Part shown: piece by piece, positions 12,844 to 34,800 of the stretch
Position numbering within the stretch: the stretch's first letter is position 1
Layout: each line of letters opens with the position of its first letter
Notes under the pieces: generated by a model
Databases searched by the model: none
What the model saw: the letters and a program-made list of their open reading frames with translations, nothing else
Told to the model about the DNA's origin: nothing
From: a virus
Lineage: Duplodnaviria; Caudoviricetes
Reading direction: 5' to 3' (one strand)
DNA length: 54,705 nucleotides
IMG/VR virus record: IMGVR_UViG_3300037842_001004
Location: 1 to 54,705 of that record
Translations under genes and position numbers: made by a program

Positions 12844-13075
12844 CGACGTTTTTAGCTCGACGGGGGAGGGACACGACACGACGCCGGCCCCACCATTCCC
12901 GGCCGAGCCGAGCACTTGCGACCACGGCGTCGAGTGGCGCGGCCCGGACTGGCCGTGCGGGCGTTGCGCTGCCGCCCTGAACCCGCCGAGTGAGCCCCGC
13001 ATCCCGATGTGGGTCGGCATGCTCGCGGCGGCCGTGGTGGGCTTCCTGGCGGGCTACGTCGCGGGGGCGTCGTGA
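12836..13075 (+). CDS. small membrane protein
   Basis: CDHG...CGRC and a C-terminal TM helix. Confidence 0.55.
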   Translation: MDDDVFSSTGEGHDTTPAPPFPAEPSTCDHGVEWRGPDWPCGRCAAALNPPSEPRIPMWVGMLAAAVVGFLAGYVAGAS

Positions 13076-13094
13076 CGACCCACCTGCGGGCCTG

Positions 13095-15242
13095 ATGAGG
13101 CGCCGGCTCCTCTCTACAGCCCTCGGGGCGCTCCTCGCCCTGGTGACCGCCCAGGCCCTACCGCATGTTCAGGCCGCCGAGGCGAGGGTCACCGTCCAGC
13201 GCCAACTGAAACGGGCCAAGCGCCAGCTCAGGCGGCGCCGCGTCGACCTCTCGACCGTCCACACGAAGAGGCTCACCCCGAAGCGGCTGGCTGCAGCCGC
13301 GGCCGCCTTGGCCGAGCAGGGCCTGCCCGAGGACCCCGAGGAACTCCGGGCGTGGGTCCGGGCCAACCATCACGAACTGGGGCGCGGCTCCCTGGCGTAT
13401 TGGATGCGCTACGAGCTGGGGATGGAGGTCGGGCCGCACCACCTGGAGTGGTCCGAGTTGCTGACGGAGCACTCGCACCTCGCGCTCCTGGCGGCTCGCG
13501 GGCACGGCAAGTCGGCGTTCTGGTCCTACGCCTACCCGCTGTGGCGCTCCTGGCGGGATCCCAACGTCCAGGGGTTGCTCATCAGCAACACCGAGGACCA
13601 AGTCGCCAAGCTCATGCGGATCGTCAAGAACGGTCGGAGCTTCGTCGACGAGGGCGGGCACGTTTGGAACATGCCGCCGGCGTCGACCCTGCCGGCGCTC
13701 AAGGACCTCATCCCCGACACCTGGGAGCGGTCGTGGACCACCGAGCGGATCACGTTCCTGAACGGCTCCGAGTTCCGCGCAGAGACGTTCGGGACCTCGT
13801 TTCGAGGCGAGCACGTCACCTGGATCATCGTCGACGACCCTCTACGGGAGAACTCGCAGTACAGCGCCACCGAGCGCGCCAAGGCGAAGGACTTCCTGTT
13901 CCGCACGGTCACGAAGATGTTGTTGCCGGCGCGGTTCGCGCAGATCGCGGTCATCGGCACGCCGATGCACGGCGACGACCTCCACGCCGAGCTTGCCCGA
14001 CTGAGCGCCTGGGGCGCCCGTAGGGGGCGTCTGCGCGGGGACTGGTACCAACGGCCCTATCCGGGCCACTGGGTCGATAAGGACGGCGAGCACTACTACC
14101 TCTGGCCGCGTCTGCGCGGTCCCGAGTGGCACGACCGGGAGCGCGAGTCGAACGGGCTCGCGTACGCCCAGGAAATCGAATTGCGCCCGGCCTCCGACGA
14201 GGTCTCGCTGTTCCCGATCGACCTCTTCTCCAGGCGGGAGGAGACGCTCGACGCGAACTTCTGTTCGCAGCCGGACCGGGCCGACATCATCGCCAACGGC
14301 TGGTCGGTCTACATGGGGGTCGACATCGCGATTAGCGCGGAGGTCGGCGCGGACTACTTCGTGATCGTCGTCCTGGCGGTCGACGACAACGGCAACCGCT
14401 GGCTGATCGATATGCCGCGCTTCAAGGGCATGCCCTACGAGGCGCAGCTCTCGGAGATAACCGCGGCCGCGCGCCGCTACGGCGCCGACCTGATCTTCAT
14501 CGAGTCGAACCAGTTGCAGATCGTCTACAGCCAGAAGCTGCGCGTGAGCACGGACCTACCGGTGCGGCCGTTCAAGACGGGGGTCGAGAAGCACTCGCTG
14601 CGCAAGGGTGTTCCGAGCCTCCGGCCGCTCATCGAGAACGGGAAGCTGCGCCTGCCGCACGGCAACGCGCACGGCGAGGAAATCACCCGAACGCTGATGG
14701 GTGAACTGAACGATTTTGGGTTCGTCGACGGCAAGGTCCAGGGCATCGGCAACCACGACGATACGGTCATGGCGCTGTGGATCTGCGACCAAGCGATCCG
14801 GGCGGGGGCAGAGTGGGGATTCATCGACTCGCTCGCCGGCGACGGGCTCGACGCTCACATGGGGACCGACTCGAAGCGGGTGGCGGCGAAGGCTGTGGTC
14901 GAGGGCGAGGACGCAACGGGCGTGCTCGCGGGGATGGTCGAGACGGACCGGCGCGCGGAGTTGGCGAGACTCTACGGCGAGAACAGCCCCGTATCGCCCA
15001 GGGTGAACCCGGACGCGGTGCGCTGGCGCCACGCTGCAGCGATCCACCCCGAGGGCCTGGAAGGCGCCCAGGACGCCGGCGCGACCCTGCCAGGGTCGAG
15101 GTCGGAGCACATCAGGGCATGGAACGCGTTGTCGAAGGAGAGGCCGAACCCGGTCGAGTGTGACCGGTCATTCGGTGAGCTGGCGAACGATTGGGGGCTC
15201 GACCTCGTCCTGGCACTCCTTCGCGACTTGCTCGACCTGTAG
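13095..15242 (+). CDS. terminase large subunit
   Basis: Walker A AARGHGKS, Walker B WIIVDD, coupling motif IGTP, RNase H nuclease YMGVDIA...HDDTVMAL. Start codon uncertain. Confidence 0.95.
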   Translation: MRRRLLSTALGALLALVTAQALPHVQAAEARVTVQRQLKRAKRQLRRRRVDLSTVHTKRLTPKRLAAAAAALAEQGLPEDPEELRAWVRANHHELGRGSLAYWMRYELGMEVGPHHLEWSELLTEHSHLALLAARGHGKSAFWSYAYPLWRSWRDPNVQGLLISNTEDQVAKLMRIVKNGRSFVDEGGHVWNMPPASTLPALKDLIPDTWERSWTTERITFLNGSEFRAETFGTSFRGEHVTWIIVDDPLRENSQYSATERAKAKDFLFRTVTKMLLPARFAQIAVIGTPMHGDDLHAELARLSAWGARRGRLRGDWYQRPYPGHWVDKDGEHYYLWPRLRGPEWHDRERESNGLAYAQEIELRPASDEVSLFPIDLFSRREETLDANFCSQPDRADIIANGWSVYMGVDIAISAEVGADYFVIVVLAVDDNGNRWLIDMPRFKGMPYEAQLSEITAAARRYGADLIFIESNQLQIVYSQKLRVSTDLPVRPFKTGVEKHSLRKGVPSLRPLIENGKLRLPHGNAHGEEITRTLMGELNDFGFVDGKVQGIGNHDDTVMALWICDQAIRAGAEWGFIDSLAGDGLDAHMGTDSKRVAAKAVVEGEDATGVLAGMVETDRRAELARLYGENSPVSPRVNPDAVRWRHAAAIHPEGLEGAQDAGATLPGSRSEHIRAWNALSKERPNPVECDRSFGELANDWGLDLVLALLRDLLDL

Positions 15243-18708: not shown

Positions 18709-18858
18709 CGGTAGACACGTCCGGGCCAATGGGCCTACCCTGTGGGTCGCGCCGGGCACCTCCGCGGCGCGCCCCGGGAACTCCCTGGGGGCGTTGGGAG
18801 TGGGGATACTACTCAACGCCTCCAGGCCCGGAACTTTTCGCGTGATAGCATCCGCCAC

Positions 18859-21800
18859 ATGAGCGACCCCGACTTGCACAAGAGCAACCCGGTCGGGGGC
18901 CACCCGGTCACCGCCGGACCCGTAGCGGGAGCTGGCGACCCCTGGGGCTCGGCTCCCGGTGACGCGCAACTCTTCCCCGCCCTAGCTCCGTTGCCTGACG
19001 CGTACCGCGAGCAGGGACGGAGCATTCTTGCGTCTGGGTCCAGTCTGGCGCTGCGGGCCTACCGCGCCCTACTGGAGCGTGCCGGCGTCGACCGCAGCCG
19101 GGCGAACGTGGCGGTCGAGCTGGCCGCGGGCTACCTCGCGACCCTGGAGGCTCCAACGCGCCTGCGGAAGTCGGCGCTGCGGGACGAGGTGTGGGAGGTC
19201 ATCCCGGGCCGCTTCGCGCGATCCCTCCGCCGCCTCATGTTCAAGGGCGCGGGGCACAAGTACATCCGCCGCGTGCGGCGCAATGGCCGCTGGGTCTACT
19301 ACTACAACGTGACCGGCGGCGCCGGCCTGGGCCACGTCGACGAGATGCACCAGGGCGCCCGCTTCAAGCTCGACCAGGGTGGCAAGTCCGGGCACTACGA
19401 GGTCCTCGCGACGGAGGGCGGGTGGGTCACCATCCGGCACGACGAGAGCGGGCACGAGACCAAGATCCGCAAGACGGCGTTGCAGACGATGCTGCACCGG
19501 GAACACGCCGAGCTTCTGGAGGGTCACCGTGCCCGCACGAGGGCCGAGCTGGAGGCCGTGGGTACGCACGGGTCCACCAAGCAGCGAGAGCGCCTGGAGG
19601 CGTACTCCCGGCGCTACATGCACACCGCCGACCTGATGGATGACCCCGAGCTACGGTTGATGGTCTGGCCGAAGCCGGTGCTCGCGGATTCGCGGACCAC
19701 CTACGGCGCGCGCCTCCGGCCGGTCGGGTCAGCGACGGTGCCTCCGGGCTATACGGCCATCGACTCGCATGGCGATTTCAAGCACGGGACGGTGACCTAC
19801 GAGGCGCCGATCGAGGACCCGAAGCACTACGGCCTCGTCGAGATACCGAGCGCCCGCAGGCGCCTACAAGTCCTGGCCGCGGCCGTTGCCGACCTGAAGG
19901 AGTACGCCGCCGAGCACGTCGAGGAGGCGGCCGACGACCCGGGCTACTTCGAGCAGGTGGTCGGCCACTACATCGACAAGGCCGGCGTCCACATGGACCG
20001 GGCCGAGTTGGCGGCCGACGTCGAGGCGGCCCTGCGGGGCCTTCGCCCGGTCGTCCCCTACGCCGAGATGGCGAAGCCCTGGGAGACCGACGCCGACATC
20101 CTCGCGGAGCACGACATCCACACCTTCGCCGAGGTCGCCGCGGCCGGCGCCGAGAAGGTCGGCCAGCTCCTCGGAGACCCCGCGCGTGGGAAGCGGATCC
20201 ACGGCGACGCGACGATGCGCCTGGGTAGCAAAGACGCGCGGGCAATGGTCCTCGCAGACCACCCGAGCACGCACCCGGACTGGGTCCCTGACCTGTCGAA
20301 GGTCGACTTCTTCATCCTCAACTCCAGCGGCGGCAAAGACAGCGTCGCGATGCTCGCCAGGGCGATCGAGGTCGCGGACCGCCAGGGGTTCCCGCGCGAT
20401 CGGATGGTGGTGGTTCACGCCGACCTGGGGCGCGTCGAGTGGAGCGGCACGAAGGAACTCGCGGCGCAGCAGGCGGCCATGTACGGCGTGCGCTTCGAGG
20501 TGGTCCGGCGGGAGGGGCAAGACCTCCTGCAGCACATCGAGAACCGCTACTACCAACTCGCGGCCCGCATCGAGGACACGGAGGCCCTGTCGGCGCCCCC
20601 CGCCGCGGTGAGTCGCGTGACTCGTGTTGCGGGCCTTCCGCTCGCAGAGGTGGCTACCGCCGACCTTGTGCCCTTGGGCGGAAGGGGGGCGCGGCTGGTT
20701 GAGGCAGCGGCCGGGCGGATGCCGCCGGGAACCCGCCTGCGGACAGCCAACGATCACGAGCTGGTTTTCGAGGACGAGTCCGGCCGCCGTACGACGCTTA
20801 CCCGCATGAGGAATACGCCCACATGGACGGGGGAGGTGACGCGCGCGGTCCATTCCGAGCGCCTCGTGTCGGGGGATCCCTCGATCTCGGGCACTGAGAA
20901 CAGGCGACGGCAGAACAAACGGCGGGAGGTCACGACGGAGCACAAGACGGTTGCTTTCCTGCAGACCGCGCTGAGGGGCAAGCGTTCGGGGTCGCTGACC
21001 GATATGCTCGCGGCGGCCGTCTCTGCCGTCTCTGCCCAGGTGGTCGCCGCGCCTACCCCGCTCACTTGGGGGGACCTCTTCGCGCGCCTGCCCGAGCCGA
21101 AGAAGTCCGGCCGCAAGGCCGAGGTCGCCCGGTTCAAGGCTGAATGGGCGGCCGCCGTCGCGGAGATCGCCGCGAAGTTGCCCGAGCGGAACGTGACCTA
21201 CCCGCCCGGCTTCGAGGACAACCCGAAGCTCCGTCAGACGATGTCGCGCCAGATGCGGGCGGAGCAGATCCTCGCGAGCGCGCGCCGCAAGCAAGGCCAG
21301 AAGGAGCCCGGCGACCCGGTCGACTGGGGCATGCCGAACCCGTGGCCCGGCGACAAGCGGTACTGCACGAGCGAGCACAAGCGCGCGGTGATCGGCGTCC
21401 TGGTGACAAAGGCCGCGGAGAAGATGCACGGCCTTCCAGCTTGGCGCGCCGAGCGCGACGCGACGCGAGCGAAGCGCAAGGCCATCGCGAACGACCGCAT
21501 CAAGGTCGTCGCCAAGGCGAAGGGCCTGAAGGGCGCGCCTCGCGCGGCGGAGAAGGCTCGCATCACGGCGCAGCTCGCCGTGTCCATGCCCGACCCGCCC
21601 GAGCCGCCGGCGCCGCGGATCCTCAACATCATGGGCCTGCGCGCTCAGGAGTCCGAGGAGCGGGCAAAGAAGCCCGCGTTCTACGAAAACAAGGCGTCGT
21701 CGGGGGTGAAGCAGATCGACGACTGGCTCCCGGTCCAGGGATGGAGCGAGGAACAGGTCTGGGACCGCATCGCCCAGGAGGGCATGCCGAGCCACGACGC

Positions 21801-22509
21801 CTACCTACTCGACCCGAAGACGGGGCGGCCGACGGGAAAGGGCATGCGGCGCCTGTCGTGCGTCTTCTGCGTCTACGCCGACTCCCACGACCTCGTCGTC
21901 GCGGCCGTCCGCAACCCCGAGTTGTTCGCGAAGTACCTGGAGCTGGAGGAGCGGACCGGCTTCACCTTCCAGCAATCCAACTTCCCGAAGGGGTCGCCCC
22001 TGGGTCTCGCGGGCAAGCCGAAGAGTCTCCGGGCGGTCGCTGACGCCATCCGCGAGCACGGTGCGACAGAGAGCATCGTCCGCGAGATTTCCGCAGCTCT
22101 ACGGGACATCCAAGATGCGCGGTCGGCCGACCTCGGTCTGGTCCAGATTGGCGACCGGCGCGCAAGCCCTCATGCGCTCGCGAAGGCCGAGGGATCCCTG
22201 GGGGATCCTTCGTTGCACACGTTGGGGTCTGCGTTGCTCCACAACCTTCGCCAGCTCCGCGCCCACGGGAAGCGGCCGGAGTCCATCCAGTACGACTACC
22301 GGGCGAGCGGCGCCGTCGTGATGATCGACTGCGAGGGGGGCGCGTACTTCGTCGGTGCGCTGTCGTACCCGGACGCGTACGGCGGGAGCACGGCCGCAGC
22401 GGCCGCGGCCCGGTTCGCCGGCATCGGGTACGAGGAGCACGGCTCGCCGGACTCGCAGGGGTCGACCAGCGTTCCGGCGCGGGCCGAGCGGGCCAGGAGC
22501 GCACGATGA
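18859..22509 (+). CDS. giant cargo protein 1: shared leader + DarA C-terminal-like domain + PAPS-reductase-like domain with insertions
   Basis: FKGAGHKYIRRVRRNGRWVYYY leader (~19243-19600). YGARLRPVGSATVPPGY...HGTVTYEAP...YGL (DarA_C pattern, ~19699-19845). SSGGKDS, HADLG.VEW, RYCTSEHK, GLRAQES..R, WLPV..W, RLSCVFC. Confidence 0.8.
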   Translation: MSDPDLHKSNPVGGHPVTAGPVAGAGDPWGSAPGDAQLFPALAPLPDAYREQGRSILASGSSLALRAYRALLERAGVDRSRANVAVELAAGYLATLEAPTRLRKSALRDEVWEVIPGRFARSLRRLMFKGAGHKYIRRVRRNGRWVYYYNVTGGAGLGHVDEMHQGARFKLDQGGKSGHYEVLATEGGWVTIRHDESGHETKIRKTALQTMLHREHAELLEGHRARTRAELEAVGTHGSTKQRERLEAYSRRYMHTADLMDDPELRLMVWPKPVLADSRTTYGARLRPVGSATVPPGYTAIDSHGDFKHGTVTYEAPIEDPKHYGLVEIPSARRRLQVLAAAVADLKEYAAEHVEEAADDPGYFEQVVGHYIDKAGVHMDRAELAADVEAALRGLRPVVPYAEMAKPWETDADILAEHDIHTFAEVAAAGAEKVGQLLGDPARGKRIHGDATMRLGSKDARAMVLADHPSTHPDWVPDLSKVDFFILNSSGGKDSVAMLARAIEVADRQGFPRDRMVVVHADLGRVEWSGTKELAAQQAAMYGVRFEVVRREGQDLLQHIENRYYQLAARIEDTEALSAPPAAVSRVTRVAGLPLAEVATADLVPLGGRGARLVEAAAGRMPPGTRLRTANDHELVFEDESGRRTTLTRMRNTPTWTGEVTRAVHSERLVSGDPSISGTENRRRQNKRREVTTEHKTVAFLQTALRGKRSGSLTDMLAAAVSAVSAQVVAAPTPLTWGDLFARLPEPKKSGRKAEVARFKAEWAAAVAEIAAKLPERNVTYPPGFEDNPKLRQTMSRQMRAEQILASARRKQGQKEPGDPVDWGMPNPWPGDKRYCTSEHKRAVIGVLVTKAAEKMHGLPAWRAERDATRAKRKAIANDRIKVVAKAKGLKGAPRAAEKARITAQLAVSMPDPPEPPAPRILNIMGLRAQESEERAKKPAFYENKASSGVKQIDDWLPVQGWSEEQVWDRIAQEGMPSHDAYLLDPKTGRPTGKGMRRLSCVFCVYADSHDLVVAAVRNPELFAKYLELEERTGFTFQQSNFPKGSPLGLAGKPKSLRAVADAIREHGATESIVREISAALRDIQDARSADLGLVQIGDRRASPHALAKAEGSLGDPSLHTLGSALLHNLRQLRAHGKRPESIQYDYRASGAVVMIDCEGGAYFVGALSYPDAYGGSTAAAAAARFAGIGYEEHGSPDSQGSTSVPARAERARSAR

Positions 22510-25500
22510 CCAGGGGACGGCGCGCCCGCGCACGGCAACGACACCTTCGAGAGGCCGAGTGGGTCAAGATCCCGGGCTCGATAGGGTCCGACCTCTTCGA
22601 CCGCCTGGAGAAGGGCGGCGCCCACAAGTACGTGCGACGCGTCCGCCGCGGCCGGCGCTGGGTCTACTACTACGACGTCACGGGCGGCCACGGCATCGGG
22701 CACCACGAAGAGATGCACGCCGGGGCCAAGTTCCGGCTCAAGAGCCGGGGCCACGCGGGCCACTACGAGGTGCTCGAAGTCAACGGTGACGAGGTCGTCA
22801 TCGAGCACGACGAGAGCGGCCACAAGGTCCGCATGAGTAAGGCCGCGCTGGAGAAGATGTTGCTGCGCGAGCACGCGAAGCTCGTCGACTCGCACAAGGC
22901 GCGCACCAGGGCGGAGATGGCCGAGGTCGCGAGGTTCGGGTCCAAGCGCCAGAAGCGCGCGATGCGCGAGTACGTTCGGCGCTACGGGCACACGAGGCCC
23001 CTGCAGACCAACCTTCACGAGCAATACGGGGAGCAGGGCGCGCCGAAGAAGGGCGAGAAGGGGCACGCCGAGCTGAGCCCCGAGAGGCGCGACGCCCTCG
23101 TCCAGGCGGACGCCATCCTCGACCGCGCCCGGCAGGTTTGGGAGGACCCCGACCAGGGTTGGCATGTGGCCTACGCCGCACAGGTCGCACTCGGCGTAGC
23201 CGTGACCGAGGACTGGTTGTCGGAGGACAGCCTTGGGGGCGAAGCCGAACTCGACCCCGAGGACCTCCCGCACCTGCTCGGAGCGAGCCACCTGTCCCCG
23301 CAGGACGCCGCCGAAGCGATCGTGCTCGCGGTCGACGTCAACGAGCGCGTCCCGCGCCCCCTCATGCGGGAGATGCTCGCGGACACGATCGCGCCGGTCG
23401 GCAAGATGCGGCTCGTGAACGTCCCGAAGGCCGAGGCGTTGGAGTTCGTCCAGCAACATCACTCCGAGATGCCCGAGCCGAACCCCCGCGGCCTCATCTA
23501 CGCGATCGGGATCCGCGACGGAGAGCGCCTCGTAGCGGTCGCCACGGCGAGCCACCCGAGCGGGCGATGGGGCTCCGGGCGGACGGACATCCGCAATATC
23601 GTCGAGTTGACGCGGATCGCCTCCGACGGCACCGGCCGCAAGGGCGCAAGCTCGAAGCTCGCAGCGCGGGTGATCGACTTGCTCGACAAGAGCAAGCGGG
23701 GCAACCCGGACGAGCCCGGCCTGTTCGTCACCTACTCGCTCCTGAGCGAGGCTGGCACCACGTACAAGGCGCTGCGCGAGAAGGGTCTGAGGCCCGTCTC
23801 GCTTCGAGAGGGAAAAGAGGGCGGCGGCGGCGGCGCCCGCAAGGGGAACAAACTGGGCTACGCCGCGCCCGACAAAATCCGATGGGAGGCCGGCGACGCG
23901 GCCGGGCCGGCTGACTGGAGCCTGCTCGACCTCGCTGTCGGAGGTGACAAGCACGCCGAGGCGATGGCCGAGCAGGCCAAGCGCGAAGCCGAGCGCCTGG
24001 GGAAGGACCGCGCCGCCGCGAAGGCCGACCTCGCCGCGGCGCTCGCCACGGAAGGGCGGGAGGGAGCCGACGCGACGATGGCGGCAGCGGCTCGCGTCCG
24101 CGCGACCGGCGGGAGCCCCGAGAGCCTGCCAGGGTGGGAGCGGTTCGCCACGCACAGCCCCTGGGGACCCCGTGAGCCCGTCGTCGAGGCGGGCCGGCGT
24201 TACGGCACGGTGCGAGCCGCCGGCGTCGGCGCCGGGCACTCCTGGTACGTCTGGGACGCCAAAGAGAAGAAGGTCGTCGACCACGCGCCCGGGTCCGCCC
24301 ACGCCGCCGACGCCGCCGAGGCCCGAGCCAGCGCCGCGAAGTGGAACGACGCCGCCGGGCGTGGCGCGACCCCGCACGAAGAGGACGCCGCGGAGATGGG
24401 CGCGAAGTGGCGGGCGAAGGCCGTCGGCCTGGAGGACGGGCAGGGTCCCGGGCAACTGGGGAATTGGATCCGGTCGATGCGCGACAACGTGCGCATGCAG
24501 CCGGGCGTCGACATCAGCCAGCACGAGCACACCCGCAGCCGTGCCGCCCTGGCGGCGCTCATCACCGAGCGCACCCGCCGGAAGGACCAGCGATCCATCG
24601 CGAGGCGCGCCGCCCTGGCGAAGAAGCGCGAGAGGTCGCGCGCAGCGCACAACGCGGCCCGACCGCAGGAGGACAAGACCAGGAAGGCCGCAGAGTACGC
24701 CGAGCGGGCCGCGAAGGTCCGGCAGCAACCGCGGGCGCACGACCCCGGCTTTTCGCACTCCCGGTACTTCGCGTCCGGCTCGAACCGGCCCGGGGAGATC
24801 CGGGGGCTCGCAGACGCGGGGCACAACATCGGCGTCGCGATCGACAAGCTCAACGAGGCCGCGGTCGTCGAGATTCAGGGGCTCAAGGGCGAGCAGGTGA
24901 AGGTGTTCGTCGACTCCGGCGCGTTCAGCGAGGTGTTCGTCAACTTCCCGGGGAAGTCCGGCAAGTTGCCCGACCCGGACCGCCCGGTCGGGATCCACAC
25001 CGTCGCGCCGATTTCGGACGAGGTCTGGGCCGAGCGCATCGAGAAGATGGGGCGCCTGACGACGCTCACATGGGACAGGGGGGAGGGGCAGCTCTACCTC
25101 GTCGCGCCCGACAAGGTCGGCGACCAGGACGAGACCCTCCGGCGCCTGGAGAAGTTCGCCGACGATGTCCGTGGGTGGGAGGCCGCGAGCGCAACGGTGC
25201 TCGTGCCCGTCCAGAAGGGCTCGCGGCGGATGGCGGATATGTGGAAGCGGCAGATGGAGATTCTCGGGCCGGGGGATTGGGTCGCCGCGATCCCGATGAA
25301 GAAGGACGCGACGAGCGCCGAGGACCTCCGCGTCTTCCTCACCTCCGCCGACCCGAAGCCGACCCGGCTCCACCTCCTCGGCCTGGGTCTGAACAGCGAC
25401 GCCTATCCGGCGGTCAAGGCCGTACTCGACGAGGTCGGCCCGGAGATTGAGGTCAGCCTGGACAGCAACCGCAAGCGCGCGATCGTCGGGCACTACCAGC

Positions 25501-27293
25501 GCAAGGGCGAGAAGGGGCCGCCGAAGAAGGGGACCGCCGCGTTGCGCGACGCCGAGGCCAAGCTCAAGGGCCGCGCGTTCGAGGACCACGCGGACCCCGA
25601 CATGGCGACGATGTGGTCGGAGGACCGGGAGACCAGGATCGGGGAGTACACGACGCAGAAGTGGCGCAAAGCCATCGCGAAGGAGCACTCCCTGCCCGAC
25701 CGCGCCCTATTCGTCAGCGACCCGGCCGCCTGGATGGGGAAGCCCGCGGACGGAGGTCCGGTCAAGGGGCCTGACGGGTTGTTCCGAGAGGGGCCTGACG
25801 GGCACCCGGTCGAGACCTACGCGGAGCAGCACCCGAGCATCGACGCCGCCCTGCGCGACCAGTACGAGGAATGGTTCACGACCGGCGGCGGGAACACCTA
25901 CTACCGCCAGCGGCGGCAGAACCGAGAGATGATCAAGGACGAGGTCGACCCCCGGGCGCACCGCGACGCGAAGACCAGGGCGAGAGAGGTGAGAGTGGCG
26001 AAGGCCAAGGCCGCAGCGAAGCCCACCAGGAGGCTCGGCGTCTACGGGTGGAGCGACGCAACGAAGGCCGACTCGGCGGGGCTCCACCTCGACCAGGAGA
26101 CGGGTCGCGTGCATCACATCGACTGGGCGCCGAAGCGGATGTCGGCTGATGATGTCGAGGAGTTCAACGCGGCGCCCCGAGCAAAGGCCGCGGCCATGAA
26201 CCGCGTGCTCGAAGCCTACGACGCGGGGACGCGCGAGTTCGGGGACGGTAGCGGCCGCTACGCCGTCGTCATCCCCGACGCGTCAGAGCCTGGACGCTGG
26301 CGCTACAGCGAGTACGACAAGAGCGGGTTTGCCTCGCACCGGACGTTCGACACGCCGCACGAGGCCGCGGCTGCAGCGGCCGACGAGGGGTTCACCGAGG
26401 CCGCGCCCGGGACCCTCGACCAACTCGCCGTGACCGACGAATGGGCCGAGGGGACGCGCGCCGCTCGCGTGATGCAGATCGCGAACTCCGCCGGGGGCCA
26501 CGGCGCGTCCGCGGTGCTCGGTCACTTCGCGCGTAACGGCCGGTCTGCCGCCGCGCTCGCCGCCATCGAGGCCGCGGTGCCCGAGCTGCGCGCGGGGCGC
26601 GTGCCTGCCGCCCTGTTGCCTGCGGCGGCCGAGGCCATCAGCGGACGGCAGCCCGCCAACGAGCACCGGCAACGCTCATTCGTCGACGACGACGGGAAGA
26701 CGCATCACGTCAGCCCATCGGACGAGCAGATCGGCCTGATGGCGCAACGCGCCCACGGCACGCTCAACCCGCTTGTCGAGCGGTGGGTGGTGCTCAACGA
26801 GAAGGGATCGAAGACGAAGGTGCTCGACGCCTACGACGCGCTCCCGCCCGTCGAGAAGGCCGCGCTCGCCTTCCAGGTCGAGGACCTCGTCGGGGGCGAC
26901 GGCTACATCACCGCGTACCGGACGCTCAACCGCGGCGACGACCCGAAGCAGATGGGCGGCGCGTCGGTCTCGACGAACCCGAAGTGGAAGGACAAGGACA
27001 ACGCTCACGCGTTCCGCGTCCACCACAGCGACATCCTGCTCACGCACGAGCAACACGAGAGCGGCGCCGGCGCCAACGCCGTCGGCTCCGCCCTGGGCCG
27101 AAGCAAGGGGTTCGGGGGGTACGGGAGCGAACAGGAGGTGATCCTCAAGCGCACCGCCCAGGTCGAGCACCTGGGGCTCGCGAAGCCGCCACCGGCCCCC
27201 GCCCTCCTCCCGAACGATAGGAACGCGTCGACCAAGCCGACCAGCTCCGCGGTGCAACAGAGCCTCGGAGGCGAGGACTGGCTTGCAAGGTGA
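22506..27293 (+). CDS. giant cargo protein 2: shared leader + Mom/XF1762-like GNAT + TGT/DpdA-like + ADP-ribosyltransferase-like
   Basis: LEKGGAHKYVRR leader (~22611-22965). EALEFVQQHH...VELTRIASDG...ASSKL...VTYSLLSEAGTTYKA...KIRWE (~23406-23888). VFVDSGAFS...APDKVGD...PVQKG...LHLLGLG...SLDS (~24763-25480). AYR...SVSTN...EQEVIL (~26905-27150). Confidence 0.75.
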   Translation: MTRGRRARARQRHLREAEWVKIPGSIGSDLFDRLEKGGAHKYVRRVRRGRRWVYYYDVTGGHGIGHHEEMHAGAKFRLKSRGHAGHYEVLEVNGDEVVIEHDESGHKVRMSKAALEKMLLREHAKLVDSHKARTRAEMAEVARFGSKRQKRAMREYVRRYGHTRPLQTNLHEQYGEQGAPKKGEKGHAELSPERRDALVQADAILDRARQVWEDPDQGWHVAYAAQVALGVAVTEDWLSEDSLGGEAELDPEDLPHLLGASHLSPQDAAEAIVLAVDVNERVPRPLMREMLADTIAPVGKMRLVNVPKAEALEFVQQHHSEMPEPNPRGLIYAIGIRDGERLVAVATASHPSGRWGSGRTDIRNIVELTRIASDGTGRKGASSKLAARVIDLLDKSKRGNPDEPGLFVTYSLLSEAGTTYKALREKGLRPVSLREGKEGGGGGARKGNKLGYAAPDKIRWEAGDAAGPADWSLLDLAVGGDKHAEAMAEQAKREAERLGKDRAAAKADLAAALATEGREGADATMAAAARVRATGGSPESLPGWERFATHSPWGPREPVVEAGRRYGTVRAAGVGAGHSWYVWDAKEKKVVDHAPGSAHAADAAEARASAAKWNDAAGRGATPHEEDAAEMGAKWRAKAVGLEDGQGPGQLGNWIRSMRDNVRMQPGVDISQHEHTRSRAALAALITERTRRKDQRSIARRAALAKKRERSRAAHNAARPQEDKTRKAAEYAERAAKVRQQPRAHDPGFSHSRYFASGSNRPGEIRGLADAGHNIGVAIDKLNEAAVVEIQGLKGEQVKVFVDSGAFSEVFVNFPGKSGKLPDPDRPVGIHTVAPISDEVWAERIEKMGRLTTLTWDRGEGQLYLVAPDKVGDQDETLRRLEKFADDVRGWEAASATVLVPVQKGSRRMADMWKRQMEILGPGDWVAAIPMKKDATSAEDLRVFLTSADPKPTRLHLLGLGLNSDAYPAVKAVLDEVGPEIEVSLDSNRKRAIVGHYQRKGEKGPPKKGTAALRDAEAKLKGRAFEDHADPDMATMWSEDRETRIGEYTTQKWRKAIAKEHSLPDRALFVSDPAAWMGKPADGGPVKGPDGLFREGPDGHPVETYAEQHPSIDAALRDQYEEWFTTGGGNTYYRQRRQNREMIKDEVDPRAHRDAKTRAREVRVAKAKAAAKPTRRLGVYGWSDATKADSAGLHLDQETGRVHHIDWAPKRMSADDVEEFNAAPRAKAAAMNRVLEAYDAGTREFGDGSGRYAVVIPDASEPGRWRYSEYDKSGFASHRTFDTPHEAAAAAADEGFTEAAPGTLDQLAVTDEWAEGTRAARVMQIANSAGGHGASAVLGHFARNGRSAAALAAIEAAVPELRAGRVPAALLPAAAEAISGRQPANEHRQRSFVDDDGKTHHVSPSDEQIGLMAQRAHGTLNPLVERWVVLNEKGSKTKVLDAYDALPPVEKAALAFQVEDLVGGDGYITAYRTLNRGDDPKQMGGASVSTNPKWKDKDNAHAFRVHHSDILLTHEQHESGAGANAVGSALGRSKGFGGYGSEQEVILKRTAQVEHLGLAKPPPAPALLPNDRNASTKPTSSAVQQSLGGEDWLAR

Positions 27294-27642
27294 ACCCCCG
27301 GATTGCGGAGTGGGCGATGGGCTTCCCGAAAGACTGGTTGAAATCGTGAGTTGCAACGAGTGCGGGAACCCCCTGGACAGCGACGACGAATGCGAGGACT
27401 GCGCGGTGGTGGTCGAGGCCGCCACCGCCGAGGCCGGGGATGCTTGGCGGTATGCTGCGAGTCTCGGGTACGACGCGGCGACGGTCGCCGAGTTGGTCGC
27501 GGCGGAAGGTCTGACGGTCGAGGTCATCGAGGATGGCGACGCGCCGACCTGGGAGGTCAAGGACGGCGTCGAGTTGGTCGGCCTGGGCCAGACCCTCATG
27601 GGCGCCAGCGTGGCGGCCTTGCGCAACCGCAGGGTTCTGTAG
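27283..27642 (+). CDS. small acidic Zn-finger protein
   Basis: CNEC...CEDC; start uncertain. Confidence 0.5.
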   Translation: MQGEPPDCGVGDGLPERLVEIVSCNECGNPLDSDDECEDCAVVVEAATAEAGDAWRYAASLGYDAATVAELVAAEGLTVEVIEDGDAPTWEVKDGVELVGLGQTLMGASVAALRNRRVL

Positions 27643-27689: not shown

Positions 27690-27725
27690 AGCATGGACAG
27701 CATGGACAGCATGGACAGCATGGAC
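27690..27725 (+). repeat. 9-bp tandem repeat (AGCATGGAC)x4
   Basis: Read directly; encodes MDSMDSMDSMD. Confidence 0.9.
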
Positions 27726-30700
27726 GCTCGATCGAGCCGAGCGCGCGGACGGGCAGGGTCCGTGCGAGACCGGGGCGATAAGGCGCGCGAGCGGCTTCTC
27801 AAGTCCGGCGAGCGAGCCGGTCACAAGTACCTGTACCGGGTCAAACACGGCCGCGGCTGGCGCTACGTCTACAAGGATGATGTGGCGCACCACGCCCGAC
27901 CCATCTCGGACCGCGAGCGTTGGCGCCGCGACAGGTCACCGAAGGCGGACCAGGAGACGGCGCACAGGGTCGCGGCGCACGGTATTGTGCCGCACGCCGG
28001 CGTGCTGCGAGACGACGAGGTCCACGGCGCGTCGAGGGTCCTGGGCGGACACCGGGTCGACGAGAGCCGACTCAACTCAGCCGGTGTGCCGATCAAGGTC
28101 CCGAACCACAATCCGCACGACGAGTGGAACCGACATCGAGAGATTCTCGCCGCCCGGATCGGCGTTGTGGGCGACAGCATCGCCCACAACGAGAGTCGGC
28201 TCTCGACCTGGACGAACGGCACGGGCGAGGGCGTCACCTCCGCGGCCGAGCTGGTCGAGTTGGCGGGTGCGGCTGAGAGCGGGTTCAAGGACGTGATGCA
28301 CGCCGCCTGCGGCGCCGTCGCCGGTGCGACGACCTTCTACGGCGAGAAGAAGGACAAGGACGGGAAGGTCACGGGCGACTACGCCATCAAGGGCGCGAAG
28401 CGTCTAGGCGAGAAGGTCGAGGCGTGGGCGAAGGACGACGTCGAGCAGGGCCGGATGAGCAACATCGAGGGCGCACGCCTCCGTGTGCTCCGCAACGAAG
28501 TCAGCGACTGCTTGCGCGGCTCGATCCTCGTCGACCACCCGGAGCAGATCGGCCACGCCGTCGCGGCGCTTCGCGAGCACGCGAGGGCCGTTGGAGCTGA
28601 CATTACGGTCGAGAACAAGTGGGGCAACGAACACAAGGGCGCCTATCTGGCGGTGCATGCCCGGATGCTCATGCCGTCCCCAAAGGGGATGATCCGAACC
28701 GAGGTGCAGATCCACCCGAAGGCGCTCATCGAGCCCAAGGAGGAGATGCACAAGGTCTACGACGTGACGCGCAAGCCGGGCTTCGACAAGGCGAAGGACA
28801 AGGACGCCTACAACGCGAGCAGCAAACTCGTTTGGACGGCCGGCATGCGTCGACTGAACGAGGACCGCGGGCACGGGCAACTGACGGACCAAACGTCGCC
28901 GCATGCCTCACCCGAGGTTCACGAAGAGGCCGCACGGGCGCACGAGGGCGTAGCCAGGATGCACGAGGTCCGTGGCGCCCAGGCGGTCGGGGTGGCACGG
29001 GGTGGCGAGAAGGCAACGGACAGGCACGCGCGCTTCGCGAACGCCGCCCGATCGATGGCCCGAGCGCACCGCGTCCAAGCCTCCGCGAAGCGCGGTATCC
29101 GTCCGTTGGACGTCGGGGAGACTCACCAGCACCTCAGTTCGGACGAGCACGACAAACTCGCAGGGCTTCACGAGATGTCGGCCGTCGAGGACGAGCACGG
29201 TGCCTGGGGCATGAAGCACGGCGTGGACCGCGAGGTGGCCCTGAACCGCGCCGCTGTGTCCCGCCTCACAGCCGTCGGCCATCAGCAGGCAGCCCGGAAT
29301 GTTCGCATTGCCGCGATGGCCCGGCCGCTCCTGAAGGCCGAGGACCTTGAGAAGGGTCGGATGCGCGGGGGTAAGTACCTCAAGAAGCGTTGGACCGGCT
29401 CCCGTTGGGCCTACACCTACCCGGACGACGTCCACCCGGGGAAGCAGCGTCGCGCCATCATGGAGGACTTGGAGCACCACGTCCGACACGGCCACCTGCA
29501 CTCCGAGACGATCGCCGACCACGGGACCCGCCTCGGGGAGCTGGACAAGAAGGTCCGCGTCCGAGCGGCCGTCCGAGCTGGCGCCGATGCGTCCGAACTG
29601 GCTGCGATGAGTTGGGACGACCGCGAGGCGGCGATCGCCGCGAAGGTCGGTGAGCGCCCCTGGCGACGGAGCGCGGGGAAGGGGAAGACCGGGCGCGTGG
29701 GGTCGCAGGACCCGATGACCGGCACCTCGCTCGGGCAGTCCAGGGCGAACAAGGCACGGGCGAAGGCGGCCCACGTCGGCTCTGTCGGCGCTCAGGCCAA
29801 CCCACCGCGGCTGCACCCGGCCGCGACGGCATCGCGTGCGCAACAACTCGCGACGCACTCGGCCGCGGTCCACATCGAGACGCACCGGAACCCGCCCGAG
29901 GGCGGCGACCGGTACTCGGCCGTGCGGACCAAGTTGCACCAGGAGGCCATCAGCGCCCACACCGAGGGGAAAACGAAGGGGCACGACCGGCCGCACGCGA
30001 TCGTGATGATGGGCGGGCCAGGGTCCGGCAAGGGGACCGTCCTCAAGAAGATCATGGGGAAGGGTGCGATGGACAACTACGTCCACGTCGACCCCGACGA
30101 GATGAAGCAGCGCGTGCCCGAGTACCAGATCGCGCGTGCCCGGAACGCCAAGGACGCGGCGTCGGTGGGTCACGAAGAGTCGTCGCACATGGCGGTGAAG
30201 CTCCACCAGCACGCCGTCGCAGCTCGACACAACATCCTGCTCGACGGCACCGGGAAGAACGCGAAGAAGCACATCGCGAAGATCAAGGCCCTGAAGGCGG
30301 CCGGCTACCACGTCACCGTCATCAGCCCGCACATCGGGGTCGAGGAGGGCGTGGCGCGCGTCTCCCAACGTGCGGACCGGTCTGGTCGCTTCGTCCCGAC
30401 CGACGTCGTGCGCGGGGCGTACGGCAAGATCCCGGGCAACTTCCACGACGTGGCCGCGCACGCCGACGACGCGATGTTGATCGACAACCACAACGGCCCG
30501 CGCGTCATGTGGCACAAAGACGAAGACGGCGAGCACGTCAGCCACGCCGACCACTACTCCCGCTTCCGCGAGGACGCGGCGGAGTCGAGGAAGGGGCAGG
30601 GGAAGGACGCACGCGAGGCGACGGCCGCGGCGTCGGCCGCGTCTGCCGACTCCGACCAGGGCCACCTGCAGGCCCACCTTCGTCACCGTCGCCTGTCGAG

Positions 30701-31244
30701 CGCGGCGACGTCCGCCGGCAACGAGGGCCTCGCCGCGCAACACAAGGCCGCAAGCCGAGCCCACCTGGAGGCCGCGCAATCACCCACGGCGGAGGGCCGC
30801 ACCCGCGCAGCGTCCGTCGCTGCGCTACACGAGCACGCCACGACCCACCCGGGGCACGACCAGAGCATCGAGTGGCACCACAAGCAGGCCGGGTTGGTAC
30901 ATCGGGCCGTGATGGCCGGCGCAGGGCATCGCGTCACGCCGGATATGCGAGAGGCCGGGAAGCACTCGCCAACGTCCCCGACAAAGCCAGATCCAGCCGA
31001 GGCACACGAGCAGGCGGCCGCGGGCCACGATCGCGTGGCCGCCGGGCACGAGCACGCCACCGGGCAGCGTCACGCGGACGCCCAGGGGAACACCGTTCCG
31101 CCCGACGCGCACAAGGCGGCGGCGAAGGCCCACCGGTCGGCAGCGCAGGCCCACCGCGACGGCCGCGGGGACGCGCAGGCGTTGACCTACAAGGCCGACG
31201 ACGCATCAACCCGAGCCCATGGCTGGAACACACGAGGCGCTTGA
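27693..31244 (+). CDS. giant cargo protein 3: two short leaders, RelA/SpoT-like nucleotidyltransferase + zeta-toxin kinase + His/Ala repeats
   Basis: LLKSG...HKYLYRVK...WRYVY. IKGAKRLGEK...SDCLRGSI...YLAVH...TEVQIH...HKVYD (~28385-28770). LEKG...KYLKKRWTGSRWAYTY. MGGPGSGKG...VDPDEMK...HEESS...NILLDGT...GRFVP (~29994-30510). Confidence 0.85.
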   Translation: MDSMDSMDSMDARSSRARGRAGSVRDRGDKARERLLKSGERAGHKYLYRVKHGRGWRYVYKDDVAHHARPISDRERWRRDRSPKADQETAHRVAAHGIVPHAGVLRDDEVHGASRVLGGHRVDESRLNSAGVPIKVPNHNPHDEWNRHREILAARIGVVGDSIAHNESRLSTWTNGTGEGVTSAAELVELAGAAESGFKDVMHAACGAVAGATTFYGEKKDKDGKVTGDYAIKGAKRLGEKVEAWAKDDVEQGRMSNIEGARLRVLRNEVSDCLRGSILVDHPEQIGHAVAALREHARAVGADITVENKWGNEHKGAYLAVHARMLMPSPKGMIRTEVQIHPKALIEPKEEMHKVYDVTRKPGFDKAKDKDAYNASSKLVWTAGMRRLNEDRGHGQLTDQTSPHASPEVHEEAARAHEGVARMHEVRGAQAVGVARGGEKATDRHARFANAARSMARAHRVQASAKRGIRPLDVGETHQHLSSDEHDKLAGLHEMSAVEDEHGAWGMKHGVDREVALNRAAVSRLTAVGHQQAARNVRIAAMARPLLKAEDLEKGRMRGGKYLKKRWTGSRWAYTYPDDVHPGKQRRAIMEDLEHHVRHGHLHSETIADHGTRLGELDKKVRVRAAVRAGADASELAAMSWDDREAAIAAKVGERPWRRSAGKGKTGRVGSQDPMTGTSLGQSRANKARAKAAHVGSVGAQANPPRLHPAATASRAQQLATHSAAVHIETHRNPPEGGDRYSAVRTKLHQEAISAHTEGKTKGHDRPHAIVMMGGPGSGKGTVLKKIMGKGAMDNYVHVDPDEMKQRVPEYQIARARNAKDAASVGHEESSHMAVKLHQHAVAARHNILLDGTGKNAKKHIAKIKALKAAGYHVTVISPHIGVEEGVARVSQRADRSGRFVPTDVVRGAYGKIPGNFHDVAAHADDAMLIDNHNGPRVMWHKDEDGEHVSHADHYSRFREDAAESRKGQGKDAREATAAASAASADSDQGHLQAHLRHRRLSSAATSAGNEGLAAQHKAASRAHLEAAQSPTAEGRTRAASVAALHEHATTHPGHDQSIEWHHKQAGLVHRAVMAGAGHRVTPDMREAGKHSPTSPTKPDPAEAHEQAAAGHDRVAAGHEHATGQRHADAQGNTVPPDAHKAAAKAHRSAAQAHRDGRGDAQALTYKADDASTRAHGWNTRGA

Positions 31245-31869: not shown

Positions 31870-34800
31870 GTGAACCCCGACCGAGCCAACCGAGCCCGCT
31901 TGCGCAAGTCGTTGGCGGGCATCGGTGCATCAGCAGCGCACGTCGCAAACGTGGCGAGGCTTCGCCAGCATCCGATGGGTCCGCCGCCAGGGCGCAACCG
32001 CAAGCGTTGGCCCTACCAGGGCACCGTCGACTTCCAAGGTCTGTCCGTTCGGGTCGAGAACGCCGCCGGCGACTTCCGCCGCGGTGTGTCGGACGACGGG
32101 ACGCCGTGGAAGACCAAGATGCGGGTCCACTACGGCGAGTTCGTCGGGACCCGCGGGACGGACGGCGACCCGGTCGACTGTTTCATCGGGCCACGCCGCT
32201 ACGCCCCGTTCGCCTACGTCGTCCACGCCCGAGACCGCCGCACCGACACCTACGACGAGTGCAAGGTGATGCTCGGGTTCTCGACCAGGGCCGAGGCCCT
32301 GGCGATGTACCGCGCGCACTACGACGGGACCGGCTGGGTCGACGGCGTCCGCAAGCTCGCGGTCGGCGAGCTGCGCGCGTGGCTCAGGGACCCCCGCAAC
32401 CGCGGCCGCAAGATCGGCGGCGGCCAAGAGCTGCGCAAGGCGATCCCGTTGCCGGCCGACCTCGGCCGGGCGCTCTGGGATGCCCAGGAGGGCGACCTCA
32501 CCAAAGGCAAGGCGCACAAGTACATCCGACGCGTCCGCAGGAACGGCCGGTGGGTCTACTTCTACAAGGTCACCGGCGGAGCTGGGCTCGGCCACCACGA
32601 CGAAATGCACGTCGGCGCCAAGTTCCGAATGCCGCTGACCTACTCGTCCAACCCAGAGAACCCGGTCGCGGGGCACTGGGAGGTCATCGGCGAGACCAAG
32701 GACGGGAAGATCCGGGTTCGTCACGACGAGTCCGGGGCCGAGCGGACGACGACCCGCGAGCAATTCTCGGAGGCCCTACGCGAGCATCACCGGGAGAGCA
32801 TCCGCGACGTCGGCCAGCGCGCGCACGAGGAGCACGTCGCAGCGTCGCTATACGGCTCGACGCGCCAACGAGAGCGCGCCGCGGAGCGCGTCCGCGAGCG
32901 GTTCCGGCAGTTCCCAGAGATGCAGCGGCTGCTATTCATCGCGCCGCCGGCGAAAGAGCCGAAGTGGCGCCCAAAGGGCCACCGGGAGCACGAGCACCTG
33001 AAGGCCGCCTTCCGCCTCTGCGAGAAGTACATCGACAACCCCCGCGGCCAGCTCGGACCCGCCGACACCGAAGCATGGAAGCCCGACGACAACGCCCGCC
33101 GGGCCGCGCGGCTGGCGCTCAAGGCCCTGGAGTTCTACGGGCACGACTTCGCGACCGCGACGCGCCTCTCGAAGCGAGCCGAGGCCCTGGGTATCGGTTC
33201 GTCGAAAGCCTTCGTCGAGCGGCTCCAGGCCATCGCCGCGGGCGACCCCAGCCTCAACCGGACGGGGCGCTACTACGACGTCAGCGCCTACGCCATGCGC
33301 GCCCTCTTCGCGTTCGAGCACGCCAAGGGTGAGCTGGCGATCGACCGCAAAGAGGACCTGAAGGGGAACGTCGCTCTCTACCTCGACACGCTCAGGCACG
33401 AGGCCCGGCGCAACTACATCAAGGGCCACGGGAACCGCGGGGGCATGGAGGCCCTGCGCGACATCCTCGGCCAGATCCGCACGAAGCGCGGGGTCAAGGC
33501 GTTCGAGGACATCCTGGCTTTCACGTCCAGCGCCAAGAGCGGTCCTGGACGTCGCGTGCGCCTCGCCCACGACGTCCTCGACCACGCCATCGCGACCGCA
33601 CAGGGGCGTCTGAAGTCGGCCGACAGGGAGATGGAGCGCCTGGGGCGCAGCGACCTGACCTCGACGTCGGGCCGCGCGACGCCGACCCTGGACGCCGCCA
33701 TCGAGAGCGACATCCAGGCCGTGCGCATCGCGAGCGGCTCGCTCACCGGCGCTCACCAGGAGTTCGGCCACGTCCTCGTGAGCGCCGACCGTCGCGTCCA
33801 CACCGAGAACTGGGAGTCGCGCGTACCTGACCACCGATTCTCCCAACTCCACCCGTCGAACTCGATGGTCCAACGCGCGTTCCGCGAGCGGTTCGGCGCC
33901 TCCGTCCACATCGAGGACGCCGTCTTCGACACGTTCAACTCACCACCGAGAGGACCGACGCCCAAATCCATGGAGAAGCGGTTCAAGTCCCTGGAGAAGG
34001 CGGCGTGGGGCATCCACGGCATGGGCGAGGGCGCGGCCGAGTGGGCGACCAACGCCGACAAGGCCGCCGCGGCAGAGGTGCGGATGGCGTCGGAGATGTC
34101 CACCGAGATGCGGGCCGACGCGCTGCGCAGCGTCTGGACGGCCCTGGAGGATATGGAGAAGTCGACCGGGCCTATCGACCTCTCCGGCCTACCCATTGTC
34201 ATCAGCGACCGCTTCGTGGGCACCGGGGCCGCGGCGCACTACAACGGGACGCACACGGCCGCCGAGTTGGGTGCCGACAAGCTCGTCAACGTCGACGTCG
34301 AGCCGAAGAACCGCGACTACCACAACGAGAACGCCGTCCGCGTGAAGCCGCACATCGCGCTCGGACTCAGGGCGGACAAGTCCCTCGGGCACGAGTTGGC
34401 GCACTACATCGAGAACCGGCTCACCATCCGCCCTGGCGGGCAAGATGCCGTTCACGACGCGCTGGCAAGCGCGGGGTTCGAGTGGGCGCACGCGAACGAC
34501 CCGTTCTTCTTCGAGCCAGAGAACCGGGAGTCCTGGGCGAAGGAGAAGCACGACCCGGGGATGCCGAAGGCGATCCTTGGGATGCTCCGTCGCGCGAAGC
34601 ACGTCGGAGGGCTCGTGTCGGAGGCTCAAGACGCCGGGTTCGCGGGCGGCGGGAAGTACCTGTCGACAATCGTCGCTCGCATCCTTCACTGGCGGGCGAA
34701 GGCCGACAAGCCAGCGTACCACGGCGACGGTAGCGCCGAGATAGCGAGCCTCGCAGACGGGATGCTCGCCAAGCTGCGCAAGCTCCCCGGCGGCCGCGAG

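Follow-up and report, generated by a model that had tools for sequence, protein, structure and literature searches.

A giant phage protein that probably joins a Mom-like GNAT domain to a new type of DpdA/TGT-like barrel

The virus record IMGVR_UViG_3300037842_001004 of IMG/VR (54,705 bases, about 40% complete, 69% G+C; its whole length is called the window here) contains at positions 22506..27293 of the + strand an open reading frame (ORF) for a multi-domain protein of 1,595 amino acids (aa). Our overall explanation, to which we give a probability of about 0.55, is that this protein is a polyvalent protein and probably capsid cargo, and that its core is a two-enzyme DNA base-modification unit composed of a Mom-like GNAT domain (aa 303-460, 23412..23885, + strand) and a (beta/alpha)8 barrel of the TGT/DpdA superfamily (aa 745-1020, 24738..25565, + strand). 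The ORF is real; its 1,595 codons are open without a stop, its start ATG shares bases with the stop codon of the upstream 1,255-aa ORF in the sequence ATGA, and a Shine-Dalgarno-like AGGAG lies 7 nt 5' of the start.

The barrel and the helical C-terminal extension that follows it (aa 1021-1140, 25566..25925, + strand) were delineated from homologues, a predicted structure and matches to solved structures as follows: A phmmer search with aa 740-1140 against 1.84 billion cluster representatives returned 824 with E<=1e-3, of which 155 reach E<=1e-30, and these family members are either stand-alone proteins of about 230-470 aa or domains in proteins of up to 4,271 aa. The extension is conserved in part of the family, where the matches reach query residues 338-398. 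When the query was aligned with 59 mostly stand-alone members (hand-picked from 150 listed of the 824), D803, A806, E809, W841, P868, D869, Q903, P930, H956, L958, G959 and D986 were invariant in 60/60 sequences. On the + strand D803 is encoded at 24912-24914 (in the motif DSGAFS), D869 at 25110-25112 (APD), Q903 at 25212-25214 and D986 at 25461-25463 (LDS), and G959 lies within the motif HLLGLG. AlphaFold2 (AF2), run on this 60-sequence alignment, gave a (beta/alpha)8 barrel plus the helical extension with a pLDDT of 89.6 and a pTM of 0.86; the extension helices occupy model residues 293-395, mostly with pLDDT >85, and the invariant barrel residues are at the C-terminal ends of the strands in the model. 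The original prediction of a DSGAFS TIM barrel at about 24763-25480 was thus borne out and can be extended to aa ~745-1020, with helices to ~1140.

Structural alignment of the model with 48,161 solved chains ranked members of the TGT family first to fourth, namely ArcTGT (1iq8, Z 13.9), DpdA (7ui4, Z 13.8), TGT (3unt, Z 13.2) and QTRT2 (6fv5, Z 11.9). Foldseek against the PDB was ambiguous, with TGT entries (E ~5e-5, TM ~0.35-0.37) intermixed with sugar epimerases. In BFVD an uncultured phage supplied the best match (E 1.6e-19), an 'ART-PolyVal-like domain-containing protein'; viral proteins with a DpdA annotation rank high as well, and the top 40 also include phage proteins annotated as queuine tRNA-ribosyltransferase. 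The barrel family profile had no match among the sequences of solved structures at E<=10. Comparison of profiles with hhalign aligned the barrel family to phage 9g DpdA alone with a probability of 60% (E 8.5e-5) and to eight aligned phage DpdAs with a probability of 89.6% (E 1.9e-6, 143 columns). In the latter alignment the barrel motifs DSGAFS, APDxVGD, VPxQKG, HLLGLG and LDS are paired with DSGAFS, LDxIGD, PCFHxGE, VHGFG and CDSS of DpdA, respectively. Salmonella DpdA uses Asp95 as general acid/base and Asp256 as nucleophile (D95A and D256A are inactive), binds the base with Asp130 and His181 and stacks Phe99 on it, as described in PMC10164549. From the paired motifs we infer that D803, F807, D869 and D986 are the counterparts of Asp95, Phe99, Asp130 and Asp256. 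An unrelated fold or a lack of catalytic Asp/Glu residues would have spoken against the original prediction, and what was found is a barrel in which D803, D869 and D986 align to the DpdA motifs. We think that aa ~745-1140 are best read, from alignment and model together, as a new DpdA/TGT subfamily, a large branch that no Pfam model detects.

The GNAT domain was identified by profile matches and alignment. The NCBIfam model XF1762_fam matches the fragment aa 290-480 over profile positions 3-142 of 143 (E 4.7e-10), and in a six-frame search it matches the window at 23412-23885 (E 1.7e-11). The same fragment is matched by phrog_1384, a 'Mom-like DNA modification protein' (E 1.4e-8), so that the acyltransferase proposed at about 23406-23888 is found essentially where it was expected. 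A search of the literature found no paper on XF1762. The Mom protein of phage Mu has a GNAT fold and is 241 aa long; it transfers glycine from Gly-tRNA(Gly) to the N6 of adenine in double-stranded DNA, and catalysis requires its R111 and S124, according to the account in PMC13219725. We aligned nine rows, consisting of the window domain, Mu Mom, the Mom of a related IMG/VR record (G034) and six XF1762-like relatives. R370 (23613-23615) stands opposite Mom R111 and is Arg in 9/9 rows, and S383 (23652-23654) stands opposite Mom S124, which is Ser in 8/9 rows and Thr in 1/9. For the GNAT, with R370 and S383 in place, as for the barrel, neither an unrelated fold nor a loss of catalytic residues was found.

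The barrel and the GNAT domain occur together repeatedly. A hidden Markov model built from the GNAT alignment, run on the 150 listed barrel representatives, found both domains in one polypeptide in nine (9/36 of those longer than 600 aa), and both domain orders occur. We also scanned 47 other IMG/VR records that carry the barrel (two of them, G005 and G010, are near-identical), and the XF1762 model matched 9/47: the match lies within the barrel ORF in five (G005, G010, G035, G006 and G045), in a gene neighbouring it in two (G009 and G029), and distant or weak in two (G039 and G036). With the Pfam Mom model, a full Mom gene was found 2.5-4.2 kb from the barrel gene in three more records (G028, G034 and G046). 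One of these, G034 (97% complete; locus L040 7956-12466), has a 4.5-kb cluster of a barrel gene, a queE-like radical SAM gene, queC (E 8e-30), a 135-aa ORF and Mom (E 5e-31); QueD and FolE were searched for in this record and had no match. What the analysis shows directly is which domains these are, that their catalytic residues are conserved, and that they recur fused or as neighbours; the recurring pairing speaks for a DNA-modification toolkit not described so far.

Other partners of the barrel were listed by scanning 27 multi-domain proteins (26 barrel family members plus P0002, an LPD1 protein). InPase was found in 4, ddrB-ParB in 6, C5 DNA methylase in 4, DUF6884 in 3 and PAPS_reduct in 1 of them; similar partners are present in viral loci, and the plasmid relatives of the barrel lie in LPD1 proteins on large plasmids. 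DUF6884, a Mom-like GNAT and the TGT-like barrel are combined in a 1,126-aa protein (P0008 and locus L011). DUF6884 is related by Pfam's authors to YaaA (PF03883), and in PMC12839542 DpdC is assigned to the YaaA Pfam family and DpdB is described as ParB-like. The fusions with DUF6884 and ddrB-ParB, which lie within polyvalent proteins of phages and megaplasmids, mirror a set of DpdA, DpdB and DpdC joined in a single chain, and Dpd-like chemistry may have been assembled into single cargo polypeptides. The DUF6884-barrel fusions were seen in loci L007, L011 and L038 and in proteins P0006, P0008 and P0080, and L038 also has a weak H2O2_YaaD match (E 8e-4).

A number of results weigh against the explanation given at the outset. 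For the barrel they are the following: the Pfam DpdA (PF23859) and TGT (PF01702) models match nothing in the window at E<=1 and 0/60 of the family members at E<=0.1 (the Pfam LPD families also match 0/60); the hhalign probability of 89.6% is not above 95%; unrelated TIM barrels reach Z values of up to 11.7, which leaves the TGT family a lead of only about 2; and the position of DpdA His181 is taken by Gln903, which is invariant in the family. The tRNA TGTs have a Cys-based zinc site, and there are zero cysteines in the 1,595-aa protein, which therefore has no zinc site of that kind. For the GNAT domain, the XF1762 score of 39.5 bits is below the curated cut-off of 50, and the Pfam Mom match is weak (E 0.027; 14.6 bits, below the cut-off of 27.1). 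In addition, the helix-turn-helix-like (HTH-like) insertion of Mom, at residues ~175-209, is a gap in the window GNAT and in 6/6 XF1762-like relatives, and the only aligned rows that have it are those of Mu Mom and G034 Mom; its deletion abolishes the activity of Mom (PMC13219725, as described there). Because this insertion is absent even though the profile matches and the Arg and Ser counterparts are present, aa 303-460 are by sequence a relative of Mom rather than Mom proper. The last of these points concerns the modified base itself. Searches of the window for QueC, QueD/PTPS, FolE (GTP cyclohydrolase I) and radical SAM proteins were negative in a record that is only ~40% complete, in agreement with the original prediction that no preQ0 biosynthesis genes are in this window. 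QueC was found in 2/47 related records (2/16 of those at least 90% complete), and none was found in G001, a complete relative that has the tag module described below. Canonical phage DpdA genes differ in this respect, as 7/9 of them have an annotated preQ0-pathway gene as their direct neighbour. On this count the donor base may be something other than a 7-deazaguanine. Candidate donors are preQ0 or preQ1 of the host, or another base.

Does the barrel act on phage DNA at all? It might instead attack the host by exchanging or excising a base in its tRNA or DNA, or place a deazaguanine-type base onto a protein like the TGT-like Cap10 of CBASS, in which case the GNAT would be an independent acyltransferase for proteins or small molecules. 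In keeping with this, the tRNA TGTs and DpdA match the barrel model equally well, barrel-family genomes seldom carry preQ0 genes, and GNATs of polyvalent proteins are interpreted as protein-modifying in PMC5512222. Cap10 itself (9ntn, 'Cap10-CdnD complex containing NDG modification') was found at Z 10.8, but this value falls in the range of generic TIM barrels. Moreover, the profile of the barrel aligns to the DNA-acting phage DpdA, the barrel is fused to DNA-acting C5 DNA methylase, ParB and DUF6884 domains, and the GNAT is in the lineage of Mom, which modifies double-stranded DNA, and is not RimI-like. On balance we regard a target other than phage DNA as unlikely.

If the two domains are a DNA base-modification unit, their action might be as follows: By homology of its active site, the barrel would take guanine out of DNA by way of a covalent Asp-deoxyribose intermediate and put another purine-like base in its place, with Asp803 as the general acid/base, Asp869 and Gln903 as the base-binding residues and Asp986 as the nucleophile. 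The donor would most likely be a 7-deazaguanine from the preQ0/preQ1 pool of the host. The GNAT would transfer an acyl or aminoacyl group to an exocyclic amine of a DNA base, which might be the N6 of adenine, the target of Mom, or else the amine on the base that was inserted. Presumably the protein is produced along with the head proteins, phage DNA would be modified before or during packaging, the protein may travel with the DNA, and DNA so modified would be refractory to host restriction. One possibility is that it acts on incoming DNA before any genes are expressed. Mu mom is expressed late, and from the position among head genes late expression is assumed here too, so that modification of progeny DNA before packaging is equally possible. 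A more specific scheme is that the GNAT and the barrel jointly make an undescribed DNA base, for example 7-aminomethyl-7-deazaguanine taken from the host preQ1 pool, whose side-chain amine would then be (amino)acylated, perhaps from a charged tRNA as with Mom, by a capsid-carried enzyme that has no phage precursor pathway; we consider this scheme a long shot.

The substrates, the donor base and the timing of these reactions would thus follow from homology, and the packaging of the 1,595-aa protein from its context. The gene is placed between the large terminase gene (TerL, 12990-15242) and the portal gene (35181-36926), amid genes for other giant multi-domain proteins, and a probable virion protein fits this context, an array of polyvalent proteins with InPase, LPD1 and Zeta-toxin domains. 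A possible though doubtful alternative is that the protein is a late enzyme of the cytoplasm and does not enter the virion, its place among the head genes being due to co-regulation only. It would agree with Mu Mom, the GNAT prototype, which acts on DNA inside the cell in the account of PMC13219725, and the ORF has no match to a structural-protein profile. It agrees less well with a gene that lies within an array of giants between terminase and portal, with the InPase/LPD1 neighbour, whose InPase part has PHROG relatives that carry the annotation minor head or virion structural protein, and with a sequence module, the 'tag', that is found in four to five of the giants and suggests that they are handled in common.

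This tag is a shared module of ~190 aa, which in the 1,595-aa protein is aa 1-190 (22506..23105, + strand; HKYxRRV..GRWVYYY..GGxGxGH..HDESGH). Strong copies in the window are at 19141-19734, 22506-23105, 32380-33033 and 39176-39760 and a weak one is at 29280-29420; related records G005 and G010 have 6 copies each. The module has many invariant His, Gly and Tyr residues and occurs at varying positions within the giant proteins encoded around the portal gene; neither the PDB nor GenBank phages yielded a relative. It may serve these proteins as a common tag for capsid targeting or DNA binding. Another conserved module, aa 1185-1370 (26058..26615, + strand), is 45% identical (E 2e-33) to the N-terminus of P0004, a 1,010-aa protein in which this module is followed by the barrel and then by the GNAT, and it is, judging from this alignment, a third module that travels with the barrel-GNAT pair.

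The C-terminal domain (aa 1374-1566, 26625..27203, + strand) is an orphan that contains letters resembling those of ADP-ribosyltransferases (ART). An R-S-E triad had been proposed at about 26905-27150, and its letters are indeed there in ART order, as Y-R1472 (26919-26921), S1487-V-S1489-T (26964-26972) and E1542-Q-E1544-V-I-L (27129-27137), all on the + strand; their identification as an ART was not supported by any profile, solved-structure sequence or fold. The T4 Alt protein is an injected ADP-ribosyltransferase with host proteins as its targets, and aa 1374-1566 might do the same, which would be compatible with DNA modification by the rest of the protein. The sole homologue in 5.8 billion proteins (a search that covered lengths other than 390-876 and >2,792 aa) is P0002, at 54-56% identity. 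P0002 keeps the R-S-E letters, although conservation in one homologue at 54% identity carries little information. No homologue was found among proteins of 122-389 aa or in genome and metagenome contigs, and viral contigs gave short, irrelevant matches only. A loose R..SxS/T..ExE pattern occurs in 1,703/2,000 shuffles of the protein, and a strict R-S-E pattern, which was written after the sequence had been seen, has 1 match in the real protein and occurs in 8/2,000 shuffles. The C-terminal fragment had no Pfam match at E<=10 and none in PHROG, NCBIfam or PADLOC; the ART-PolyVal model PF18760 did not match the domain at E<=0.1; hhalign against an ART-PolyVal domain gave a probability of 0.3%; and an AF2 model of aa 1374-1566, built on 2 sequences, had a pLDDT of 39.5 and was unusable. 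The Arg and Ser motifs are also just 15 residues apart, and classical ART toxins have a longer spacing. Thus, in spite of the ordered letters, their retention in P0002, the outcome with the strict pattern, and the fusion of an ART-PolyVal domain to the same barrel in other phages, we hold an ART of the Alt kind to be doubtful; the domain may add a protein-directed activity. The genuine ART-PolyVal domains that share a polypeptide with the barrel are in locus L022 (7380-7784) and in the BFVD entry A0A6J5LU57, and the first ART-PolyVal motif in L022 is YHGT, with His where the window protein has Arg.

Several global searches complete the description of the protein. The whole 1,595-aa sequence as query had no match in Pfam, PHROGs or NCBIfam, where only fragments were matched, and PADLOC gave nothing on 7 fragments. 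In tblastn searches of 50,697 GenBank phage records the whole protein, the barrel, the barrel family member P0013 and the tag module had no match. Searches of solved-structure sequences with the barrel, the C-terminus, the GNAT and the profiles A1, A2 and A3 gave no relevant match. Matches to protein-atlas features ('T4 beta protein family', DUF4765, and DpdA in 17% of one cluster) are leads only.

Of the other giants around the gene, the one at 18742-22509 has 1,255 aa and matches PAPS_reduct in part, the one at 27693-31244 has 1,183 aa and a Zeta-toxin kinase domain, the one at 31870-35184 has 1,104 aa and carries InPase and LPD1, and the one at 39086-43039 has 1,317 aa and no profile match; the major capsid protein is encoded at 51605-53119. 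In the 18742-22509 protein the match is confined to the C-terminal third of PAPS_reduct (profile positions 105-172), the same partial match is present in the barrel-carrying relatives P0031, L012 and L022, and this part may be a distinct DNA-modification module derived from a PP-loop protein. The Zeta-toxin-type kinase is aa 760-943 of the 27693-31244 protein (E 4.6e-32), and the rest of that protein has no profile match. Just 3' of the stop codon of the 1,595-aa ORF, in another frame, is a short open stretch (27293-27349) that ends ...NPRIAEWAMGFPKDWLKS, an ending that we take to resemble a motif conserved in C5 DNA-methyltransferases. The stretch might be a remnant or due to chance; in relatives the barrel is fused to a C5 methylase. 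The GTG of a 98-aa ORF (27346-27642) overlaps the stop of this stretch. This ORF lies between two giant ORFs and has an N-terminal CxxC...CxxC (VSCNECG..DECEDC), a possible zinc ribbon.

Modification with 7-deazaguanines and modification of the Mom type are two of the main routes by which phages hide their DNA from restriction. Here a large uncatalogued DpdA/TGT branch (the 824 cluster representatives) is repeatedly tied to Mom-like GNATs, by fusion and by neighbourhood, and most genomes with the barrel family lack a preQ0 pathway of their own. If the explanation preferred here is true, it would bring a new family of enzymes and perhaps also a DNA base that is new, and how polyvalent proteins protect incoming or progeny DNA could be tested directly; such enzymes are also of use in the preparation of restriction-resistant DNA.

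How does the protein compare with known systems? It shares with DpdA (phage 9g gp03; Salmonella Montevideo DpdA, PDB 7UI4) the TIM barrel, an identical DSGAFS and the Asp motifs in the same order, and both have ParB partners, as ParB-like genes lie beside the DpdA genes of Rosebush, Rinkes and Mufasa8 and ddrB-ParB is fused in 6/27 proteins of the barrel set. It differs in that the barrel family has its own motifs (YFASGSN, VPxQKG and IPMKKDAT), in that the Pfam DpdA and TGT models are blind to it, in that the barrel is embedded in giant multi-domain proteins, and in that the family is rarely accompanied by queC (2/47 records). With Mu Mom it has in common the GNAT core, significant matches to Mom-like profiles and the R111/S124 counterparts, whereas the window GNAT is below cut-offs, lacks the HTH-like insertion and forms one domain in a protein of 1,595 aa, where Mom is an enzyme of 241 aa. 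The BREX-related capture (BRC) defence, in which a GNAT is 'occasionally fused with TGT' and for which a DNA-marking step by GNAT/TGT is proposed in PMC12839542 (2026), has the same pairing of domains as the window protein, as compared by description only; the BRC locus, which includes PglZ, HerA and a STAND NTPase, serves host defence and is not a polyvalent protein of a phage head region. We found no description in the literature of DpdA in a polyvalent protein of this type, and supplements may list the domain under another name. Specifically, the main text of PMC5512222 (Iyer et al. 2017) on polyvalent proteins in phages and conjugative elements mentions no TGT, TIM barrel, Mom or queuine and its GNATs are RimI-like only, a comparison that covers that text and not its external architecture tables. 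The likeness to the polyvalent proteins described there is nonetheless close in overall design: they too are giant polypeptides that bring several unrelated enzymatic modules together beside head genes, the neighbours in the window have InPase, LPD1, Zeta-toxin and PAPS_reduct, and the relatives on large plasmids lie in LPD1 proteins. With GNAT and TGT-like modules in 1,595 aa between TerL and portal, the protein is a polyvalent protein by module content and position.

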